From positions 1 through 31,998 of IMG/VR virus record IMGVR_UViG_2724679538_000010: 31,998 bases of DNA. The stretch is one strand, 5' to 3'. Shown piece after piece: positions 19,678-31,998 of the stretch. A program made the translations under genes and the position numbers. Under the pieces are notes generated by a model. The model was not told the origin of the DNA. It worked only from the letters and a program-made list of their open reading frames with translations, and made no database searches. Positions within the stretch are counted from its first letter, which is position 1; each line of letters starts with the position of its first letter. The DNA is from a virus. Lineage: Duplodnaviria; Heunggongvirae; Uroviricota; Caudoviricetes.

Positions 19678-21450
19678 ATGACCATCACCACAGACACCAC
19701 TCTTTTACACGACCCGCGTCGTCAGGCGGCGCTGCTGTACTGGCAGGGATTTTCCGTGCCGCAGATTGCCGCCATGTTGCAGATGAAACGCCCGACGGTG
19801 CAGAGCTGGAAACAGCGCGACGGCTGGGACAGCGTTGCCCCCATCAGCCGTGTCGAAATGAGTCTGGAAGCGCGGCTGACCCAGCTCATCATCAAACCGC
19901 AGAAAACCGGCGGTGACTTCAAGGAAATTGACCTGCTCGGACGCCAGATTGAACGACTGGCACGGGTCAACCGTTACAGTCAGACCGGCAACGAGGCAGA
20001 CCTTAATCCGAACGTCGCTAACCGCAACAAAGGCGGGCGTCGCAAACCGAAAAAGAATTTTTTCAGTGACGAGGCCATCGAAAAGCTGGAGCAGATTTTC
20101 TTTGAGCAGTCTTTCGAATATCAGTTGCACTGGTATCGCGCCGGGCTTGAGCACCGCATCCGCGATATCCTGAAATCCCGCCAGATTGGCGCGACGTTTT
20201 ATTTTTCCCGCGAGGCGCTGCTGCGCGCCCTGAAAACCGGTCATAACCAGATTTTTCTGTCGGCCAGTAAAACGCAGGCGTATGTGTTCCGCGAATACAT
20301 CATCGCCTTTGCCCGGCTGGTTGACGTTGACCTGACCGGTGACCCGATTGTCCTGGGCAATAACGGCGCAAAACTAATTTTTCTCGGCACCAACTCCAAC
20401 ACCGCACAGAGCCATAACGGCGACCTGTACGTCGACGAGATTTTCTGGATCCCGAATTTTCAGGTACTGCGTAAGGTGGCATCAGGTATGGCCTCACAGA
20501 GTCACCTGCGTTCGACCTATTTCTCCACCCCGTCCACGCTGGCGCACGACGCCTACCCGTTCTGGTCGGGTGAACTGTTCAACCGGGGACGCGCCAGCGC
20601 CGCCGAACGCGTGGAAATCGACGTCAGTCATAACGCCCTTGCCGGTGGGCTTCTCTGTGCGGACGGCCAGTGGCGGCAGATTGTCACCATTGAGGACGCC
20701 CTGAAAGGTGGCTGCACGCTGTTCGACATTGAGCAGCTCAAACGTGAAAACAGCGCCGACGATTTTAAAAACCTGTTCATGTGTGAATTTGTTGACGACA
20801 AGGCGTCGGTGTTCCCGTTCGAGGAGCTGCAACGCTGCATGGTCGACACGCTGGAAGAATGGGAAGACTATGCGCCGTTTGCCGCGAATCCGTTCGGCTC
20901 CCGCCCGGTATGGATTGGTTACGACCCGTCACACCGTGGCGACAGCGCCGGATGCGTGGTGCTGGCACCGCCGGTGGTGGCCGGTGGCAAATTCAGAATA
21001 CTTGAGCGTCACCAGTGGAAAGGCATGGACTTTGCCACTCAGGCGGAATCCATCCGCAAACTCACCGAAAAATACAACGTCGAATACATCGGTATTGATG
21101 CCACCGGCCTCGGTGTCGGCGTGTTCCAGCTCGTGCGCTCGTTCTATCCCGCCGCGCGCGATATCCGCTACACGCCGGAAATGAAAACCGCAATGGTGCT
21201 CAAGGCAAAAGACGTTATCCGCCGTGGCTGTCTGGAATATGACGTCAGCGCCACCGACATCACCAGCTCGTTTATGGCTATCCGCAAGACCATGACCAGC
21301 AGCGGACGCAGCGCCACCTATGAGGCCAGCCGCAGCGAGGAAGCCAGCCACGCCGACCTCGCCTGGGCAACCATGCACGCCCTGTTAAATGAGCCACTCA
21401 CCGCCGGTATCAGCACTCCGCTGACATCCACCATTCTGGAGTTTTACTGA
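19678..21450 (+). CDS. P: Terminase large (ATPase) subunit P
   Basis: 590 aa from MTITTDTTLLHDPRRQAALLYWQGFSVPQIA...; divergent from O; SD GAGGT upstream. Confidence 0.9.
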   Translation: MTITTDTTLLHDPRRQAALLYWQGFSVPQIAAMLQMKRPTVQSWKQRDGWDSVAPISRVEMSLEARLTQLIIKPQKTGGDFKEIDLLGRQIERLARVNRYSQTGNEADLNPNVANRNKGGRRKPKKNFFSDEAIEKLEQIFFEQSFEYQLHWYRAGLEHRIRDILKSRQIGATFYFSREALLRALKTGHNQIFLSASKTQAYVFREYIIAFARLVDVDLTGDPIVLGNNGAKLIFLGTNSNTAQSHNGDLYVDEIFWIPNFQVLRKVASGMASQSHLRSTYFSTPSTLAHDAYPFWSGELFNRGRASAAERVEIDVSHNALAGGLLCADGQWRQIVTIEDALKGGCTLFDIEQLKRENSADDFKNLFMCEFVDDKASVFPFEELQRCMVDTLEEWEDYAPFAANPFGSRPVWIGYDPSHRGDSAGCVVLAPPVVAGGKFRILERHQWKGMDFATQAESIRKLTEKYNVEYIGIDATGLGVGVFQLVRSFYPAARDIRYTPEMKTAMVLKAKDVIRRGCLEYDVSATDITSSFMAIRKTMTSSGRSATYEASRSEEASHADLAWATMHALLNEPLTAGISTPLTSTILEFY

Positions 21451-22484
21451 TGAGCAAGAAAAAAGGGAAAACACCGCAACCTGAGGCAAAAAAAATGACC
21501 GCCAGCGCCCCGAAAATGGAGGCTTTCACCTTTGGTGAGCCGGTGCCGGTACTCGACCGCCGTGACATTCTGGATTACGTCGAGTGCATCAGTAACGGCA
21601 GATGGTATGAGCCGCCGGTCAGCTTTACCGGTCTGGCGAAAAGCCTGCGTGCTGCCGTGCATCACAGCTCACCGATTTACGTTAAACGCAATATTCTGGC
21701 CTCGACATTTATCCCGCATCCGTGGCTTTCGCAACAGGATTTCAGCCGCTTTGTGCTGGATTTTCTGGTGTTCGGTAATGCGTTTCTGGAAAAGCGTTAC
21801 AGCACCACCGGTAAGGTCATCAGACTGGAAACCTCACCGGCAAAATATACCCGCCGTGGCGTGGAGGAGGATGTTTACTGGTGGGTGCCGTCCTTCAACG
21901 AGCCGACAGCCTTCACGCCCGGCTCCGTGTTTCACCTGCTGGAGCCGGATATTAATCAGGAGTTGTACGGCCTGCCGGAATATCTCAGCGCCCTTAATTC
22001 TGCCTGGCTGAATGAGTCGGCCACGCTGTTCCGCCGAAAGTATTACGAAAATGGCGCTCATGCCGGATACATCATGTACGTCACCGATGCCGTGCAGGAT
22101 CGCAACGATATCGAAATGCTTCGCGAAAACATGGTCAAGTCGAAAGGCCGCAACAACTTTAAAAACCTGTTTCTCTATGCCCCACAGGGGAAAGCCGACG
22201 GCATTAAAATTATCCCCCTCAGTGAAGTGGCGACGAAGGACGATTTTTTTAATATCAAAAAAGCCAGCGCCGCTGACCTGCTGGACGCGCACCGCATCCC
22301 CTTTCAGTTGATGGGCGGCAAGCCGGAGAACGTCGGGTCACTGGGAGATATTGAGAAAGTGGCAAAGGTCTTTGTCCGCAATGAGCTTATCCCGCTACAG
22401 GACAGGATCCGCGAGATAAACGGCTGGCTCGGTCAGGAGGTCATCCGCTTTAAAAACTACTCACTGGACACTGACAACGGCTGA
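21450..22484 (+). CDS. Q: Portal protein Q
   Basis: 344-aa ORF; length and position match P2 Q. Confidence 0.9.
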   Translation: MSKKKGKTPQPEAKKMTASAPKMEAFTFGEPVPVLDRRDILDYVECISNGRWYEPPVSFTGLAKSLRAAVHHSSPIYVKRNILASTFIPHPWLSQQDFSRFVLDFLVFGNAFLEKRYSTTGKVIRLETSPAKYTRRGVEEDVYWWVPSFNEPTAFTPGSVFHLLEPDINQELYGLPEYLSALNSAWLNESATLFRRKYYENGAHAGYIMYVTDAVQDRNDIEMLRENMVKSKGRNNFKNLFLYAPQGKADGIKIIPLSEVATKDDFFNIKKASAADLLDAHRIPFQLMGGKPENVGSLGDIEKVAKVFVRNELIPLQDRIREINGWLGQEVIRFKNYSLDTDNG

Positions 22485-22909: not shown

Positions 22910-23851
22910 ATGCAAGGTAAAGTTGACGAACAGCAATCCAATGATATTGAAGCTGAGTTTGGATACTATCCAGTAGAAGTTAACGTTGAAACTGATGATT
23001 TTTCTTTACTTACTTTACCCGGTCTAGCGGAAAAAACAAATCTTATAAACAATCACAGAAATGTTATTAACGGTTGGATATACCCAGGAAACCAAGAAGT
23101 ATATAACCTCAATGGAGGCATATCCACAATGCCTTTTAGCCAACGAGTATTTGGCTTACCCAAAACACACTCACTAAAATTAAAAAATACATCTTCACTA
23201 GAAACTCTCAATTTTGCTGTGTGGTGTCTGTCTTTTTTCAAAGGGATAAGATTAACAACTACTGATGCCGGTTTTTTAGACGCAACCCCAATAAAACCCA
23301 GCAAATTAACTGACTTTATTCTGGTCAAGTGCTCTGAAAAAGAGGTTATAGAATTAGCACTCAAATACATGTCTAGCGAGAAAAAAACCAAACACGCACC
23401 AATAAATATCGCAGCAATAGTGCATGCACTATTTTTATCCCAAAACCCACAATACCTTAGCTTCGAAAAATTCCAGTATCTTTATATGGCACTGGATAGT
23501 TGCTTTGCTTTAACATGGGCAGAAAAGAACAAGTGTACAGAAAAGACTCTAAATCACTCCAGGCGCTTGAAGTGGATCTGCAAAACTTATGGCATACCAC
23601 GACCATCATGGGTTACAGGCAAAAAAAACATTACAAACATCCGCAATGAAAACTTTCATGAAGCTATGTTTCATGGTCAACCACTTGGCTTTACCACTAT
23701 TAACAATTATCAATATGGAGATGACATATTACAACAAATGCAGGCTTTAATTTGCCGATTGCTCGTTGCGATTCTTGGTGTTAACGCCCCCGATTACATC
23801 ACATCGAACGTGAACTCTCGTGAATATCATTCACTAACATTAAAAATATAA
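22910..23851 (+). CDS. Hypothetical 313-aa protein, AT-rich cargo gene, no recognisable motif
   Basis: Long uninterrupted ORF with GGAG SD upstream; composition and codon usage unlike the prophage backbone. Confidence 0.55.
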   Translation: MQGKVDEQQSNDIEAEFGYYPVEVNVETDDFSLLTLPGLAEKTNLINNHRNVINGWIYPGNQEVYNLNGGISTMPFSQRVFGLPKTHSLKLKNTSSLETLNFAVWCLSFFKGIRLTTTDAGFLDATPIKPSKLTDFILVKCSEKEVIELALKYMSSEKKTKHAPINIAAIVHALFLSQNPQYLSFEKFQYLYMALDSCFALTWAEKNKCTEKTLNHSRRLKWICKTYGIPRPSWVTGKKNITNIRNENFHEAMFHGQPLGFTTINNYQYGDDILQQMQALICRLLVAILGVNAPDYITSNVNSREYHSLTLKI

Positions 23852-23866
23852 AACGACTAAAAATAC

Positions 23867-23892
23867 TCTCCAGTAACAATAAGTACTGGAGA
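23867..23892. terminator. Hairpin between convergent cargo genes (9-bp stem tctccagta/tactggaga, 8-nt loop); T-rich flank on the minus-strand side
   Basis: Perfect inverted repeat between the stop codons of the 313-aa gene and the membrane-protein gene. Confidence 0.5.
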
Positions 23893-23933: not shown

Positions 23934-24533
23934 TTACTTAGATAGTTTGTCTTTAATTATATTCAGAACACCAATTATTAATTCACTGATTGGCGTGGCC
24001 AACTCAATAGTATTAGATGTCGACTTTGTTCTAAAGTCTTTATCTGTCGGGTGTTGAAATGCTGATTTAAGAAGAGTCAAAAGCAAAGTTAAACCCACAC
24101 CAAGGATGAATGCAACAATAGCTATTAGAGAACTGGCCGATAACCAATCGGTGGATAAACCAGAAATAGATTTTCTAACTTTATTAGTGTCTGAAGATGG
24201 TGTTATCCTCTCATCAGCCATCTTCGGATCCGCAGATAAAGCAGAACATTTTTCTGCTGAAACACAAGTTTGTGCATCTACTTTTTGTGTTATCGCTGTG
24301 GCAATACTGCTTTTCGCTTCCAGCAAGCCATTTCCAACAGCCAAAGCAAAGTTAAGCCCCTGCCATAGAAATGTACAAGCAAAACAAAGCACAACGGCAG
24401 AGAGCACTAATCGCATACTTCTACGCTCTATACCATCCCGTCTATCTCGCCTTATAAGGATATCAGGATCTAAATCGCCCTTAGGAGTGGTTCCTTGCTC
24501 TGGGGACTGTCCAGATAAATCAATATCAGCCAT
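23934..24533 (-). CDS. Predicted two-helix membrane protein (199 aa) with charged N-terminal region; putative effector
   Basis: Two hydrophobic segments (LVLSAVVLCFACTFLWQGLNFALAV and LIAIVAFILGVGLTLLLTLL); co-directional with and 66 bp downstream of the peptidase gene. Confidence 0.6.
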   Translation of the reverse strand: MADIDLSGQSPEQGTTPKGDLDPDILIRRDRRDGIERRSMRLVLSAVVLCFACTFLWQGLNFALAVGNGLLEAKSSIATAITQKVDAQTCVSAEKCSALSADPKMADERITPSSDTNKVRKSISGLSTDWLSASSLIAIVAFILGVGLTLLLTLLKSAFQHPTDKDFRTKSTSNTIELATPISELIIGVLNIIKDKLSK

Positions 24534-24538
24534 AAAAA

Positions 24539-24572
24539 AATCACCCTTACATATACAAACGTAAAGGTGATT
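24539..24572 (-). promoter_or_regulatory. Intergenic hairpin plus U7 tract between peptidase and membrane genes; intrinsic attenuator that also occludes the membrane gene SD
   Basis: Minus-strand RNA AAUCACCUUUA-(12 nt loop)-UAAGGGUGAUU-UUUUUUU-AUG: 11-bp stem with one G.U pair, 3' arm contains the SD-like AAGGGUGA. Confidence 0.5.
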
Positions 24573-24599
24573 TTAAACAGGTTAAAAGTTAAAGGCTAA

Positions 24600-25085
24600 T
24601 TAATAAGCCATTCCTAAGCTCTTTAAGCGCCAATGCATAGCGGCTTCTGATACATTAAAGATGCTTGCTAATCTCAAAGTGCTATCAATACCTTCTCTGG
24701 ATACCAATTGACGTATAGCAGACTCAGGCATTAACAACTCAGCAGCAAACTTGTTTGCTTCAACCTCACGGTAATCACGAGCACCTGTTGAATAATTCCC
24801 GACATTATCCCGATGGTACTCTCCGTCCTGGGTATGCCCCAGCACATGATGACCTAACTCGTGTGCAACAGTAAAACGTTGACGATTAGAATGTTCACTA
24901 GAATCAAAATAAATCCTATGGACACCCTTTTTGATGACAGCCAGACCGCTTAACCCATCGTTGTTATAAGCCGATTCCTCAAGTGCTTCAACACGAGCAC
25001 CCCACGCTTTAGCAAGCTTAAACGGATCGACAGGTAGTCGGCGATCCCAATAGCGGTCAAGCAGTTTTTTAGCTGCATAGCTCAT
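24600..25085 (-). CDS. ImmA/IrrE-family (COG2856-like) zinc metallopeptidase, 161 aa
   Basis: HEXXH motif in FTVAHELGHHVLGH followed by EANKFAAELLMPE, characteristic of ImmA/IrrE peptidases; strong SD AGGAGG 6 nt upstream of the ATG; no HTH domain in the protein. Confidence 0.75.
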   Translation of the reverse strand: MSYAAKKLLDRYWDRRLPVDPFKLAKAWGARVEALEESAYNNDGLSGLAVIKKGVHRIYFDSSEHSNRQRFTVAHELGHHVLGHTQDGEYHRDNVGNYSTGARDYREVEANKFAAELLMPESAIRQLVSREGIDSTLRLASIFNVSEAAMHWRLKSLGMAY

Positions 25086-25807
25086 GGTTGCCTCCTACGT
25101 TAAAAAAGTTAAGTATGCACAGCCATATCACAGTTGTTATTTTATGTCAAGGCTGTTTTTCAGCCATTACTATAACACTAATCCACGTTTTCCCATAACA
25201 TTTTCGACATCATATATGCATTCAGTTCTGCATATAGCGCTTATCTTTGCTGATAACACGAGATGAATACGCGCAATCAGCCCACGATTTATAAAAAACC
25301 TTATAAATCAGAACATTGAGTTAAAAAAAACACTAACTACTTGCGCAGCGAGTTGTTAAACCTCAGCGACACTAAAAGAAAATTTCAGAGTCACCGCAGC
25401 TTCCACAGAAAACGCAACATAATGATTTTATTGGAATTTATGGCGCTATTTTTAATTACTTGTTTAAATCCGCCATATTGAAACTGTGCATTTCTAGCCA
25501 CTCACAACTTTAAAAAATTTACATTGCTTTCAAGACCTTATCATCCGTAGTCTCTGCTTTTTACTTTGAGCTATATCAAAAAAAGCTCAAACATCCTTGA
25601 TGCAAAACCAGTATTACACAACATAAAATGCAACCAGAAACAACGACATACCATATATTGTGTTGTTCAGGTCCTCTGTTCGGTGATATGCCAGATCACT
25701 TTGCGTTTAAACAGAGCATTATTTCAGGGCAAGACTTCGCTCAATAGTCACTCCGCCTTAGAAGCGCATATATCGGCGGAAATTGCCCTCTGCTTACAGG
25801 AGGCGAT

Positions 25808-25921
25808 ATGAAGAAGTGCTATTACTGCATTCTCGTTCTGGCCCTCTTTGGCTATCCATATGGTAGTCCGAGTGGTTTGTCAGTAAACGTCAGTAATATC
25901 CATGTAAGTATTTTTCTTTAG
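25808..25921 (+). CDS. Possible small hydrophobic protein (37 aa, MKKCYYCILVLALFGYPYGSPSGLSVNVSNIHVSIFL)
   Basis: Consensus SD AGGAGG 7 nt upstream of the ATG; ORF ends just before a strong terminator; below the 60-aa cutoff of the ORF track; no homology evidence. Confidence 0.25.
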   Translation: MKKCYYCILVLALFGYPYGSPSGLSVNVSNIHVSIFL

Positions 25922-25933
25922 TATGCTTCAAAC

Positions 25934-25963
25934 AAAAAAACCACCTGCCAGGGTGGTTTTTTT
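25934..25963. terminator. Bidirectional rho-independent terminator (A7 - ccacc..ggtgg hairpin - T7)
   Basis: aaaaaaaccacctgccagggtggttttttt read directly; lies downstream of A on the minus strand and of the small ORF on the plus strand. Confidence 0.65.
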
Positions 25964-26223
25964 GCGCCCGTCATCAATCCGATGAAAGACTAGCAAGACT
26001 TCGCTCGAGATGAATTATGCTTCGACATAAAGTCACTCGCAATGGTTTTATTAACCGAAATAGATGCTCTTTTATGACTCGAATCAAATAGCTGCCTTCA
26101 ATTACATGCTAACGATTCAATACAATTTAGCCTTCTGATTCAACACGCTATTGCTCCTCATCTACCTTAGAGGTGCTTCGCATAATCCATTCAAAGACAT
26201 ATAAAATCACGCTGTATTTTTAC

Positions 26224-28542
26224 TCAAATGGGTAACAAAAATCCCGGCCAATCATCAGCGACCTGATAAGTGAAAGGTTTCCCGTCATAATTTACGGTCG
26301 CGCCACGCGCCAGCGCCTCAAGCTCCCATCGTTGCGGCCTGATACCGTTCTGAGCGAGATCAACGCGGATACGGGTAATTTGCAATCGTTCCGACCGGGT
26401 CAGCCTGGCCGACGGTGCTATTTCATGTGGTTTTAACGGGCTTCCGTTTCTTTGCTGACGATTTGGTGTTTTCAGGCCGTGCTTTAATGCACCCCTGAGC
26501 GTCCTCACGACCTCCGGGTCATTCCATTCGATAACACCGTCATCAACCAGATTAAGCACTGCTGCGGCGTGCTCAGAAGGCGAGGGAGCCGGTAACGAAG
26601 TATTACCGCCGGTGAGCTTTCCACAGTTATTGACAGGACTCCGAGGCGCGGCGATGCCGCTTTTTAAAGTCAAAGGCTCAACGACCGGAACTTTCGGCAC
26701 AATGCGCCAGTCCGTCGTTCTGGTGATATGAATATGACGCGCGCCGAGATGCGGCGCGTAAATGCCGACCACTCTCTCGACTTCTTCCTCGTATTCGTTA
26801 ACGTCATCCGACGGGCTACGAGCGACCCTGACAGTCTGACAATCGCGCGGGACATTTGCCCCGCCCTGCGCGCTGATATACAGCGCAAAATCGCCACTGT
26901 CTGCGGCGGCGCGTGCAGCCTCCACGCGTTCGTCAAATTCATCAGCAATGCTGACGCCGCGAGGCAATTTACGTAGCTCACGGTAAGCTCCCATTGTCGG
27001 CAGGCCAACCGTTTTAAATTGCGGGATGCGCCACGTTGACGCCCATGCGGTAACAGCCGCCGCAGTATCTTTCAGCGGTCTGCCGGTATCGTTATCGAGC
27101 TGACCATCCAGTGCATAGCCGTCGATATTTTTTGAAATGTATTTCGCGATATATCCCGCAGCACCGCCCCGGTTAAGGTGTTTTGCCTGAAAACGGTTTC
27201 GCGCGGCTCCTCTTTCGTCGCCATCCTCTTTGAGCGCATAGCGACGCATGATTTCGATAATCTGGTTACGCTGGCGTGGATTACAAAAAAGCATCATATG
27301 CCAGTGCGGCGTTCCGTCGTGGTGTGGCTCGACGACTCGCAAACCGTAGACCTGTAAATCATTATCCTTGAATGCCGTGCGCATCAGGCTCCAGATACGA
27401 CAGAGATAACGCTGCGCATCCTTTGGATTAAATGCCTCATCATTCCAGCCGTGATTAAGCTGGACGGTTTTATTTTCGCCTTTTCCAACCTGACGTGTCG
27501 GGTGATACTTTGACGGCGCGGTAAGCGTGATAAACATCCCCACATCACCCTCTGATGCGGCGTAACGCTCAATACCGGCAATGGTGTTCATCAGCTCCAT
27601 CCGGCGAATTTCAGGATTAGAAATACTGCCCATCACCTTACTGATAAGGTCGATGCGCTCGCCGGTTTCCCTGTTTTCAAGGTCACACGATTTAAGAAAT
27701 TCCAGATTTGCCTGGCGGCGCGCACGCACATCACGAATGGCATGTTTACTGGCATAAGGTGAACGGTCTTTATTGACCTCCCCGACAGCAATCAGTAACG
27801 CCTCATGCCAGCGCATACGCTGGCCTTTAAGCTGACTAATCCACCACTCATCGTTAAACAGGCGGGCAATGGCAGAATATGCCTGCCTCGTGGTCATCTG
27901 TCCTTTACGGTATTTTTTCCAGTAGAGAGGGGAAATATTGAAAGCACGTGCAGCGCCAGCAACATGACCATACAGGTGAGCCTGCGCCTCATCCGTAAAC
28001 AGCGATTCTTTTTCGCCATGCGCATCCACCCAGGCATCGCAGAGTTCCTCATACATCATGAAAAGCTGCGATGAGATACGGGCGGCAAACTTTTTCAGCT
28101 CCTTGTCATTCATTCCTGGCAGGCGCGCATAGTGGTCACGCTCTGCCAGAAACAGCAACGACGCGTCGGTGTTCATTTCATGGCGCTGATTCACACGCTC
28201 AATACGCGGCCATAAACGACGCTGAAAAGTGGATGTGAGGAAATAAAACCCGTGTACCGGACTTTTATTGCTCCGGATGTAGTCATAGCGTGAAGTAAAC
28301 AGCGAGCGCAAAAAGTAAGGCAGGCGGTTAATCGTGGATAAAACACCTTGCACCTGACGCATCTCGTCACGTGTAAGAGGTCTTTCTCGCCCGACGGCCT
28401 CGCGTGGCGCGTTCCATGCATAAGCACCGGTAAACGTCTCACCGGTGCCTGCGGCAAATGCTGACGGAGGGACAAAACGCCCGGAGGCTTTAACGGCCAT
28501 ATGAGCCAAAAGCCTCTGAACAACGCTTGCTGAGTTGCTCAA
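26224..28542 (-). CDS. A: Replication initiation endonuclease A (rolling-circle initiator)
   Basis: 772-aa ORF; conserved HUH-type region (PHHDGTPHWHMMLF) and paired Tyr region typical of P2 gpA family. Confidence 0.9.
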   Translation of the reverse strand: MSNSASVVQRLLAHMAVKASGRFVPPSAFAAGTGETFTGAYAWNAPREAVGRERPLTRDEMRQVQGVLSTINRLPYFLRSLFTSRYDYIRSNKSPVHGFYFLTSTFQRRLWPRIERVNQRHEMNTDASLLFLAERDHYARLPGMNDKELKKFAARISSQLFMMYEELCDAWVDAHGEKESLFTDEAQAHLYGHVAGAARAFNISPLYWKKYRKGQMTTRQAYSAIARLFNDEWWISQLKGQRMRWHEALLIAVGEVNKDRSPYASKHAIRDVRARRQANLEFLKSCDLENRETGERIDLISKVMGSISNPEIRRMELMNTIAGIERYAASEGDVGMFITLTAPSKYHPTRQVGKGENKTVQLNHGWNDEAFNPKDAQRYLCRIWSLMRTAFKDNDLQVYGLRVVEPHHDGTPHWHMMLFCNPRQRNQIIEIMRRYALKEDGDERGAARNRFQAKHLNRGGAAGYIAKYISKNIDGYALDGQLDNDTGRPLKDTAAAVTAWASTWRIPQFKTVGLPTMGAYRELRKLPRGVSIADEFDERVEAARAAADSGDFALYISAQGGANVPRDCQTVRVARSPSDDVNEYEEEVERVVGIYAPHLGARHIHITRTTDWRIVPKVPVVEPLTLKSGIAAPRSPVNNCGKLTGGNTSLPAPSPSEHAAAVLNLVDDGVIEWNDPEVVRTLRGALKHGLKTPNRQQRNGSPLKPHEIAPSARLTRSERLQITRIRVDLAQNGIRPQRWELEALARGATVNYDGKPFTYQVADDWPGFLLPI

Positions 28543-31017: not shown

Positions 31018-31998
31018 ATGGCAATTAAGAAGCTCGATGATGGTCGCTATGAAGTGGACATTAGACCTCGCGGTCGCGACGGAAAACGCATCCGCAGGAA
31101 ATTCGAAAGAAAAGCTGAAGCACTAGCATTTGAGCGATACACAATCGCCAATGCCAGTCAGAAAGAATGGGGAGGCCAGCGAGCAGACCGCCGGACTTTG
31201 AGTGAGTTGCTGGACATCTGGTGGAAATATCACGGGCAAAACCACGAGCATGGAACAAAAGAGTTTAATCATCTACTCAAAACCATCAGCGGCATAGGTG
31301 ATATACCAGTGAGCAGGATGAGCAAAAGGGCTTTGATGGATTATCGTTCCATGCGACTACGTGATGGTATCAGTGCCGCAACGATAAACCGTGACATGTA
31401 CCGATTATCCGGCATGTTCACAAAATTAATTCAATTGGATGAATTTTCTGGGCAACACCCAATTCACGGACTGCCGCCACTGGCGGAGGCCAACCCTGAA
31501 ATGACGTTCCTGGAAAAAGCAGAAATCGAAAAACTGTTAAATGTTTTGGCTGGTGATGACTTACTTGTCGCGCTTTTATGTCTGAGCACTGGAGGAAGAT
31601 GGACGGAAGTTGCCACGCTAAAACCAGCACAGATTACAAATTGCAGGGTTACCTTCCTGAAAACCAAAAACGGTAAAAAGCGAACCGTGCCGATTTCTGA
31701 GGAACTGGAGAAAAAAGTTAAAGAGGAGGCCAGCGCCAAATTATTCAAAGTTGATTATGAGAAATTTTGCGGGATTTTACGCAGAGTGAAACCTGATATA
31801 CCACCCAATCAGGCAACCCACATCCTGCGGCATACATTCGCAAGCCATTTCATGATGAATGGGGGCAATATAATCGCACTGCAACAGATTCTGGGACATG
31901 CGAGCATTCAGCAGACGATGGCCTATGCGCACCTTGCGCCTGACTATCTGCAAAATGCCGTCGCTCTGAATCCACTAAAAGGCGGAGTGACGTTATAA
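31018..31998 (+). CDS. int: Tyrosine integrase
   Basis: N-terminus MAIKKLDDGRYEVDIRPRGRDGKRIRRKF matches P2 Int; C-terminal catalytic motifs (HILRHTFASHF, LGHASIQQTMAYAHL) present; SD GGAGG upstream; stop codon is the last triplet of the window. Confidence 0.9.
   Translation: MAIKKLDDGRYEVDIRPRGRDGKRIRRKFERKAEALAFERYTIANASQKEWGGQRADRRTLSELLDIWWKYHGQNHEHGTKEFNHLLKTISGIGDIPVSRMSKRALMDYRSMRLRDGISAATINRDMYRLSGMFTKLIQLDEFSGQHPIHGLPPLAEANPEMTFLEKAEIEKLLNVLAGDDLLVALLCLSTGGRWTEVATLKPAQITNCRVTFLKTKNGKKRTVPISEELEKKVKEEASAKLFKVDYEKFCGILRRVKPDIPPNQATHILRHTFASHFMMNGGNIIALQQILGHASIQQTMAYAHLAPDYLQNAVALNPLKGGVTL

Follow-up and report, generated by a model that had tools for sequence, protein, structure and literature searches.

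A terminator-type hairpin, followed by seven uridines and the start codon of a membrane-protein gene, lies between this gene and an upstream M78 peptidase gene in a P2-like (Peduovirus) prophage. It probably acts as a constitutive attenuator and as a lock on the Shine-Dalgarno (SD) sequence, which would hold the membrane protein well below the peptidase. The window, which is the whole stretch of 31,998 nucleotides analysed here, corresponds to this prophage, and the gene pair is read from its minus strand. In the original prediction, the membrane protein was limited both by termination and by SD occlusion; this is the most economical reading, because the design persists across unrelated stem sequences and through compensatory changes. 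As judged from the sequences compared, this RNA hairpin is genuine and conserved, and as a cis-regulatory feature it belongs to a known general kind.

The peptidase gene ends with a TAA stop codon at 24602-24600 on the minus strand, followed by an A/U-rich spacer of 25 nt (24575-24599) between the stop codon and the stem. The spacer is largely unpaired in the minimum-free-energy (MFE) fold, and it contains a further UUAACUUU box (24592-24585) as well as another in-frame stop codon. In the MFE fold, the hairpin occupies 24537-24574 with 16 bp, where the 5' arm extends over 24574-24559, the loop over 24558-24553 and the 3' arm over 24552-24537; the arm sequences are AAAAUCACCUUUAC at 24574-24561 and GUAAGGGUGAUUUU at 24550-24537. 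The U7 tract at 24534-24540 is both the terminator tail and the spacer between the SD and the AUG, and the ATG of the membrane gene (24533-24531) stands directly after it. The predicted combination of a hairpin and U7 between the two genes is thus confirmed by the minus-strand sequence and the fold. The stem had been described as 11 bp with one G.U pair and a 12-nt loop (24572-24539), which is a valid sub-structure; in the MFE fold, however, the upstream AAAA is paired to the first four U, which gives 16 bp and a loop of 6 nt (24574-24537). The seven uridines do run into the AUG at 24540-24534, although two of them had also been counted in the 11-bp stem.

The SD-like sequence AAGGGUGA of the membrane gene (24541-24548, minus strand) is fully paired inside the 3' arm, where it had been predicted to lie. 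The GGUGAU within it is the complement of the 16S rRNA 3' end (5'-GAUCACC), which the AUCACCU of the 5' arm mimics as an anti-SD look-alike. The aligned spacing from GGUGAU to the AUG is approximately 10 nt. The SD is accordingly base-paired in a stable local helix and suitably spaced for initiation at the AUG, as in an SD-sequestering helix. The context energy of the hairpin is −18.9 kcal/mol. For the 91-nt region, the MFE is −27.3 kcal/mol, compared with −12.1 ± 2.5 kcal/mol in 200 dinucleotide shuffles (z = −6), where 0 of the 200 shuffles folded as well. The structure is stable by this folding-energy calculation, which had been proposed as a check of the original prediction.

As a terminator, the core stem has 12 bp and an energy of −14.9 kcal/mol, and its d'Aubenton-Carafa-type score is 22, compared with 20 for the strong terminator AAAAAAACCACCCUGGCAGGUGGUUUUUUU downstream of gpA (25933-25963, minus strand). 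A stable stem is followed by U7, 25 nt past the peptidase TAA, as in an intrinsic terminator. From these features we infer that transcription would terminate intrinsically in the U7 tract and that the stem would block translation of the membrane gene. The termination may be partial because the base of the stem is A/U-rich and the loop has 6-10 nt. The automated terminator scan of the window did not list the hairpin, probably because four U are taken up when the stem is extended to its maximum, so that the tail window contains too few T. When ORFs of at least 90 aa were ranked by the cost of freeing the ribosome-binding site, the membrane gene was 7th of 79, a rank distorted by spurious ORFs and by first starts that were wrong. 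In place of this ranking, both strands were scanned for a stem, a U-run and a start codon of an ORF of at least 50 aa, and the hairpin is the only case at a real gene in the window.

Two minor features of the fold were also observed. A mini-ORF of AUG-UAA (24546-24551, minus strand) lies at the top of the 3' arm of the window's stem in the MFE pairing; it is absent in relatives and is probably incidental. MFE folds often add a clamp of 3-4 bp around the main stem, in which the spacer (GCC/CCA) pairs with the start region (AUGG/GGC). This clamp is formed by 24529-24533 and 24593-24596 in the window and is also found in relatives, and it is too short to evaluate.

The genes on both sides had been called correctly. 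The upstream gene (24600-25085, minus strand) encodes a stand-alone ImmA/IrrE peptidase of 161 aa with the HELGH motif, whose single Pfam domain is PF06114 (Peptidase_M78, 3.8e-21). It matches the PADLOC capP model (1.1e-30, model positions 8-153 of 242) and, in the peptidase part only, the RmrA models (6e-17; for example, positions 146-267 of 363), and its nearest solved structure is that of CapP (PDB 7t5t). The gene has a strong SD, GGAGG, at 25091-25095 on the minus strand. Upstream of it, a putative σ70 promoter at 25122-25150 on the same strand consists of TTGACA (25150-25145), a 17-nt spacer and TGaTATGGC (−10 hexamer at 25127-25122). This promoter was read from the sequence and is under the scan threshold, and its layout of TTGACA-N17-TAAGGC/TATGGC is conserved in enteric relatives. 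Approximately 40 nt upstream of the −35 (GGGATTAGTGTTATATTAATGGCTGAAAAA) are also conserved among the enteric relatives.

The downstream gene (23934-24533, minus strand) encodes a protein of 199 aa that belongs to phrog_8096, a family of unknown function. Two transmembrane (TM) helices are predicted at approximately 42-64 and 126-154, forming an N-in/C-in helical hairpin with both termini in the cytoplasm. Ahead of the first helix there is an Arg-rich segment, the loop contains two conserved Cys residues, and an amphipathic helix lies at the C-terminus. The motif AFILGVGLTLxLTLLK is invariant. The AlphaFold model shows a helical hairpin only, with a pLDDT of 64. No match was found in Pfam, PADLOC (including RmrT) or NCBIfam. 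Homologues form a small family of 51 clusters, mostly from Enterobacterales, with Vibrio in addition, and a profile search of genome contigs gave nothing confirmable. The start of the membrane gene is often mis-annotated, either at an internal ATG, which gives 159-160 aa, or at an AUG within the 3' arm of the hairpin. In the latter case, the spurious N-terminus MVIFF or MMVIFF is really the stem and the U-tract. Such cases include the locus L002 at 326-805 (OU784750), the locus L153 and the proteins P0004, P0021 and P0022.

The gene pair sits between gpQ and gpA, which is the cos-proximal cargo hotspot of these phages, with the portal gene at 21450-22484 on the plus strand and the replication gene A at 26224-28542 on the minus strand. 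P2 itself carries old and tin in this hotspot (Rousset et al. 2022, PMC9122126). In minus-strand order, the gpA terminator is followed by approximately 0.8 kb without long ORFs, the putative promoter, the GGAGG ribosome-binding site, the peptidase gene, the 66-nt intergenic region, the membrane gene and an inverted repeat. The gpA-distal terminator (25963-25933) would insulate the module from the early operon of the phage. The inverted repeat (23867-23892, strand unassigned) lies at the junction of the membrane gene and a convergent gene of 313 aa; its minus-strand U-tail is weak, and it is likely the end of the module transcript. In the region of approximately 1.1 kb between gpA and the peptidase gene (25086-26223), which contains the terminator at 25963-25933, no ORF exceeds 81 aa. 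A search of Rfam with permissive thresholds gave an RNAI-like match at 25855-25965 (E = 0.029), whose 27.8 bits are below the gathering score of 47.

Salmonella phage MET_P1_103_31 is 99% identical to the window over this stretch, and the segment 23900-25300, which covers the gene pair and its upstream region, was found in 47 of the 5,426 complete E. coli genomes. A two-gene system named 'Peptidase + TM' was cloned from the P2 hotspot of E. coli TA280 in the construct pFR104 (Rousset et al. 2022, PMC9122126). The window carries the same kind of cargo, namely an M78 peptidase and a TM protein encoded in a two-gene module flanked by gpA and the portal gene, and the window is matched at 26243-26214 by the beginning of the pFR104 insert and at 25963-25933 by its terminator. 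The cloned module included its native upstream region. Eight extra systems of the P2 hotspot were cloned and challenged with eight phages only, and the peptidase + TM module was not among the three reported to be active (Rousset et al. 2022, PMC9122126).

The conservation of the hairpin was analysed at relative loci taken from IMG/VR, metagenomes and assemblies. At every enteric locus, the peptidase gene is followed by an intergenic region of 66-71 nt with the same hairpin design. Across the hairpin-bearing relatives, the intergenic regions have 57-74 nt, a spacer between the stop codon and the stem is present in all, and the U-run has 5-8 U (6-8 in the enteric loci) and always abuts the AUG. 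The outer stem of the enteric class, AAAUCACC/GGUGAUUU, is invariant, whereas the inner stem varies with compensatory changes (AUUAU/AUAAU and AUCAU/AUGAU, with UUUAC/GUAAG in the window), and the loop varies freely in sequence and length. The GGUGA(U) core of the SD-like sequence is invariant in the 11 distinct enteric sequences. In these 11 intergenic sequences, 96.4% of the cells are paired, compared with 33-72% when the partner is slid. Four stem pairs are changed on both sides, where the covariation is limited to the inner four pairs and the sequences compared are related. RNAalifold independently predicted the same helix, with agreeing pair counts. The number of G.U cells on the gene strand is 7, against a single C-A, which would read as G.U on the opposite strand; this indicates that the hairpin belongs to the mRNA.

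The same layout recurs with at least four unrelated stem sequences. The unrelated stems include CCCUCUG-acug-CAGAGGG followed by U6 and AUG (L016) and, in Vibrio, GCCCUCA-aaaa-UGAGGGC followed by U5A and AUG (L026). The layout is also seen as GCCACCU..AGGUGGC followed by U7 or U6 and AUG in Aeromonas Mu-like phage (L148/L149), as GCCACC..GGUGGC with U7 and AUG in Klebsiella (L152), and as GCCAC..GUGGC with UUAUU and AUG (L172). In every stem class, the purine- or G-rich SD-like arm is the 3' arm. The downstream proteins of L148 and L152 are confirmed members of the membrane-protein family. In the distant relatives, the stem-loops have energies between −9 and −15 kcal/mol. All nine hairpin versions tested have a positive terminator score (5 to 27), in the range of the gpA-distal terminator with its 20. 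Because the design, consisting of a terminator-type stem, the SD in its 3' arm and the U-tract as the spacer, is kept with unrelated stem sequences and compensatory changes, it is, on this comparative evidence, under selection.

The module itself is much more widely distributed, and most of its relatives are without the hairpin. With the peptidase profile, the pair of an M78 peptidase and a two-TM-helix protein was confirmed in at least 518 stretches in IMG/VR. In the best 80 of these relatives, with an identity of 35-50%, the peptidase gene is as a rule followed by a gene for a protein of 125-230 aa with two predicted helices, whose start overlaps or abuts the stop codon at an offset of mostly −4 (ATGA), ranging from −14 to +13. 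Overlapping or abutting gene pairs were also found in the genomes of Cupriavidus, Alcaligenes and Maridesulfovibrio. The overlapping or abutting arrangement implies translational coupling. Hairpin-free members of the family include L027, which has an A/T-rich gap of 30 nt and no SD, and the P. aeruginosa pair L150/L151, which has a gap of 13 nt. The start and stop codons of the hairpin-free relatives overlap or are separated by up to 30 nt, and their SDs are weak or absent; the membrane gene would therefore be subordinated to the peptidase by another route. The peptidase gene is first in all cases. The order of peptidase first and membrane gene second would so be that of an ancient module with translational coupling as its usual link, and the terminator/SD hairpin would replace the coupling in one part of the family, in Enterobacterales, Aeromonas and Vibrio. 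The downstream proteins of Pseudomonas, Cupriavidus, Alcaligenes and Maridesulfovibrio share the two-helix architecture with no detectable homology to the protein of the window, and they are analogous to the family instead of belonging to it.

In the reading that we prefer, the module would be transcribed from its own promoter at approximately 25150, and the stem and U7 would form an intrinsic terminator, at which most transcripts would end just before the AUG of the membrane gene and encode the peptidase only. In the transcripts that read through, the SD (GGUGA) would stay paired with the anti-SD-like 5' arm (AUCACC), and ribosomes terminating at the peptidase stop would be unable to open the stem because this stop lies 25 nt upstream. 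No promoter passing the scan was found between the stem and the AUG, where there is no room for one, and the membrane gene is therefore read through the stem. Its initiation would take place only at a low rate, perhaps through standby of the 30S subunit on the unpaired A/U-rich spacer, and the net outcome would be a fixed, large excess of the peptidase over the membrane protein. Of the two proteins, the one in the membrane would be potentially harmful and the peptidase would control it, either as an antitoxin-like neutraliser or as a processing enzyme; we infer this direction of the relationship. The toxicity is argued by analogy with the ImmA-type protease antitoxins of RosmerTA, together with the peptidase-first gene order.

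Several other forms of control were considered for the stem and rejected. Control by CsrA does not agree with the sequence, which has no GGA in the loop or the SD. Stop-codon read-through, or unwinding by the ribosome, does not agree with the second in-frame stop 6 codons on, the TAATAG tandem stops of relatives and the distance of at least 25 nt from the stop to the stem. A leader peptide was rejected because the AUG-UAA in the loop occurs only in this window, and transcriptional slippage was rejected because the length of the U-run, 6 to 8, follows no frame logic.

With the SD covered by a helix of approximately −19 kcal/mol, next to no translation is expected; the membrane ORF is nevertheless well conserved and has to be expressed, which leaves room for an unlocking step. 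This tension would be explained by a weak internal promoter with fold-back inhibition as in IS10, which we consider unlikely. Transcription would start inside the 5' arm, and the transcripts without this arm would neither terminate nor hide the SD and would serve as the actual mRNA of the membrane gene, so that the hairpin would silence only the read-through from the peptidase promoter. A −10-like TAAAAT at 24577-24572 overlaps the A-tract just 5' of the stem, and hexamers with A at position 2 and T at position 6 (TAAAAT, TAGAAT, TACATT, TATCCT, TAGCAT and TAGAAT) place the predicted start 3-7 nt into the core of the 5' arm in 7 of 8 loci of different stem classes, although L017 and L025 (TATAAA) have no T at position 6. 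The conserved CCCTTTAACTTTT box would supply a −35, which is poor (TTTAAC, with a 16-nt spacer). However, the candidates agree with the consensus at no more than 7-8 of 12 positions, including 3-4 of the 6 in the −35, and are under the scan threshold. A/T-rich tracts upstream of terminators readily yield −10-like hexamers, and the hexamer search was post hoc and had no proper control set. The strength of the lock against the conserved ORF also suggests a conditional switch, in which the stem is opened or bypassed only by a trigger such as anti-terminated RNA polymerase of an infecting or induced phage, cleavage by RNase III or RNase E, or a helicase, and the membrane protein is made on demand. 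The location in a prophage defence and cargo hotspot is suggestive, and the 16-bp duplex is long enough to count as an RNase III substrate. Changes in the T1 stem of ColE7 affect the stability of the downstream cel mRNA (PMC2896534). On the other hand, no antiterminator pairing was found, and the 100 nt upstream contain no copy of GGUGAU or AUCACC and no complement to either arm. No conserved leader ORF or small ORF is present, the AUG-UAA in the loop of the window is not kept in relatives, and the AUG within AUGGUGA changes its frame with respect to the real start as the U-run varies in length. The stem is too stable for an RNA thermometer, and nothing points to a particular trigger. Rfam gave no match at E ≤ 1 within 24500-24700, and the only matches, near 25360-26020, are sub-threshold. 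The conditional switch is consequently rather doubtful, and of the earlier term 'attenuator-like', the terminator-type stem stands, whereas the regulated switch does not, as there is no antiterminator pairing, leader ORF or ligand-type structure. The hairpin could in particular be a gate, where the membrane protein is essentially unmade in the healthy lysogen and is made only when the stem is bypassed by a termination-resistant polymerase of an incoming or induced phage, by nuclease cleavage or from a stress-activated promoter inside the 5' arm; we give this form little credence. If it were true, the RNA structure would be the infection or induction sensor of a module present in hundreds of phage genomes.

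The hairpin could also be an ordinary gene-end terminator or an mRNA-stabilising 3' hairpin of the peptidase gene, perhaps bidirectional, for which the overlap with the SD is incidental. AAAUCACC-N-GGUGAUUUUUU is a common generic terminator shape, with at least 120 unrelated matches, mostly in Firmicutes, in the collection scan, and among the matches listed for the pattern AAATCACC-N(10-30)-GGTGATTTTTT in genome contigs there are only generic terminators of unrelated bacteria. The A-tract/U-tract symmetry of the enteric class is typical of bidirectional terminators. The non-enteric stem classes are, however, not bidirectional because the A-tract is absent, and a separate inverted repeat, 650 nt away, belongs to the convergent plus-strand gene. 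In all stem classes, the U-tract is directly followed by the AUG, and the 3' arm is the G-rich, SD-like one. The membrane gene has no alternative SD, and the G.U count of 7 to 1 is in favour of the gene-strand RNA. An incidental overlap is very unlikely in view of these points. The same G.U pairs would be mismatches in DNA, which bears on whether the inverted repeat is an operator or a recombination site bound by a protein. The 14-bp inverted repeat with its invariant outer half and the repeated CCCTTTAACTT box flanking the peptidase gene are consistent with such an element at the DNA level. In contrast, different lineages have unrelated stems but retain the U-tract at its place next to the AUG, and the module encodes no DNA-binding protein, which makes this explanation extremely improbable.

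Among the known systems, the closest analogues of the attenuator and SD lock that we favour are the T1 terminator of ColE7 and the terminator of ToxIN, both of which are precedents, with experimental support, for a terminator ahead of a harmful gene. In ColE7, the intrinsic terminator T1 lies between cei and cel, before the lethal cel gene, and is partially read through (PMC2896534). The two systems are alike in having an intrinsic terminator stem-loop within the operon, directly upstream of a gene for an envelope-directed protein, which is lethal when over-expressed in ColE7 and may be harmful here; a second, translational layer acts at the downstream SD in ColE7 and would do so here. They differ in that CsrA binds GGA motifs in the T1 loop and the SD, whereas the hairpin here has no GGA and its stem itself pairs the SD. 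The ColE7 promoter is SOS-controlled, whereas that of the module is apparently of the constitutive σ70 type, and there is no sequence similarity. In ToxIN, a type III toxin-antitoxin and abortive-infection system related to phage defence, a Rho-independent terminator between toxI and toxN terminates approximately 90% of transcription, which gives an excess of approximately 10:1 of the protective first component and is a conserved hallmark of the family (PMC4147584). The likeness would consist in a terminator between a protective first component and a toxic second gene; in ToxIN, however, the upstream component is a repetitive antitoxin RNA instead of a protein gene, and SD occlusion is absent from the description.

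The peptidase is related to RosmerTA, CapH/CapP and ImmR/ImmA by the same ImmA/IrrE (M78) domain family. In RosmerTA, the antitoxin role falls to the ImmA-type protease protein, which has diverse toxins as partners (PMC10440598). RmrA of RosmerTA consists of an ImmA-type peptidase with an N-terminal helix-turn-helix, whereas the peptidase here is the domain alone, with no fused or neighbouring helix-turn-helix partner and no helix-turn-helix ORF nearby in the window, and it does not belong to RosmerTA. The assignment to CapH/CapP fails likewise, as the CapP-like peptidase has no adjacent CapH helix-turn-helix repressor and no CBASS operon, and no CBASS genes occur anywhere in the window. Ribosome standby at stable structures of ribosome-binding sites is documented (PMC5934652, PMC6690012). 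The standby systems of the MS2 coat gene and tisB resemble the hairpin in having an SD in a stable helix with a single-stranded A/U-rich region upstream, and tisB also encodes a toxic membrane peptide. The hairpin can further be compared with IS10 and IS50, where read-through transcripts are subject to fold-back inhibition. In contrast to the present case, no helix in MS2 coat, tisB or IS10/IS50 is known to serve at the same time as an intrinsic terminator next to the start codon. At the hairpin described here, standby or internal initiation is hypothetical.

The terminator/SD lock in the enterobacterial, Aeromonas and Vibrio versions, the coupling elsewhere and the position of the peptidase as the first gene together indicate that the membrane protein is probably dosage-sensitive. 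If so, native clones are expected to express the membrane protein very poorly, and opening the 5' arm would be a simple way to unmask a phenotype. The hairpin sits in an uncharacterised yet common phage module, of which one cloned example gave no reported defence phenotype, and no description of the hairpin or of the function of the module was found in the literature. One short hairpin would do two jobs, namely to stop transcription and to occlude the ribosome-binding site, and it would have been re-created with unrelated sequences. It could aid tools for predicting terminators and ribosome-binding sites as well as designs in synthetic biology, and no general principle is changed by it.

Some further observations concern the surroundings of the module. 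The convergent gene of 313 aa (22910-23851, plus strand) belongs to phrog_5937, of unknown function, and occupies the 'old' position of the hotspot; its protein has no match in Pfam, PADLOC or NCBIfam, and, irrespective of the peptidase pair, the gene is present in P2-EC67, Yersinia and other Peduovirus genomes. The module is found between mor and lysis genes in Mu-like phages (L149) and beside integrase or lysis genes elsewhere (L156), and the loci showing it as a common phage module are L165-L236 (IMG/VR), L150 and L154-L156.

A repeated short box is also found in the module. A UUAACUUU box in the 5'UTR of the peptidase gene (25105-25112, minus strand), approximately 10 nt upstream of GGAGG, matches 8 of the 9 positions of the 'epsilon' enhancer of T7 gene 10, UUAACUUUA, as quoted in PMC9590205, and in the P2-associated versions the spacer before the stem carries a box of the same resemblance. 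A function of this epsilon-like box in the module is only a suggestion. A reading of the CCCTTTAAC box as a Cox box was rejected, since the match is only partial. TTAACTTT, which covers 8 of the 9 epsilon positions, has 5 copies in the window, all on the minus strand, compared with 0.95 expected. The copies lie at 25105-25112, 24585-24592, 24348-24355, 24085-24092 and 31714-31721, and 4 of the 5 are inside the 1.1-kb module. The two copies within the membrane ORF arise from Leu/Asn/Phe/Thr codons and are not conserved, and those in the 5'UTR of the peptidase gene and just past its stop are conserved as CCCTT(T)AACTT in the P2-associated relatives.
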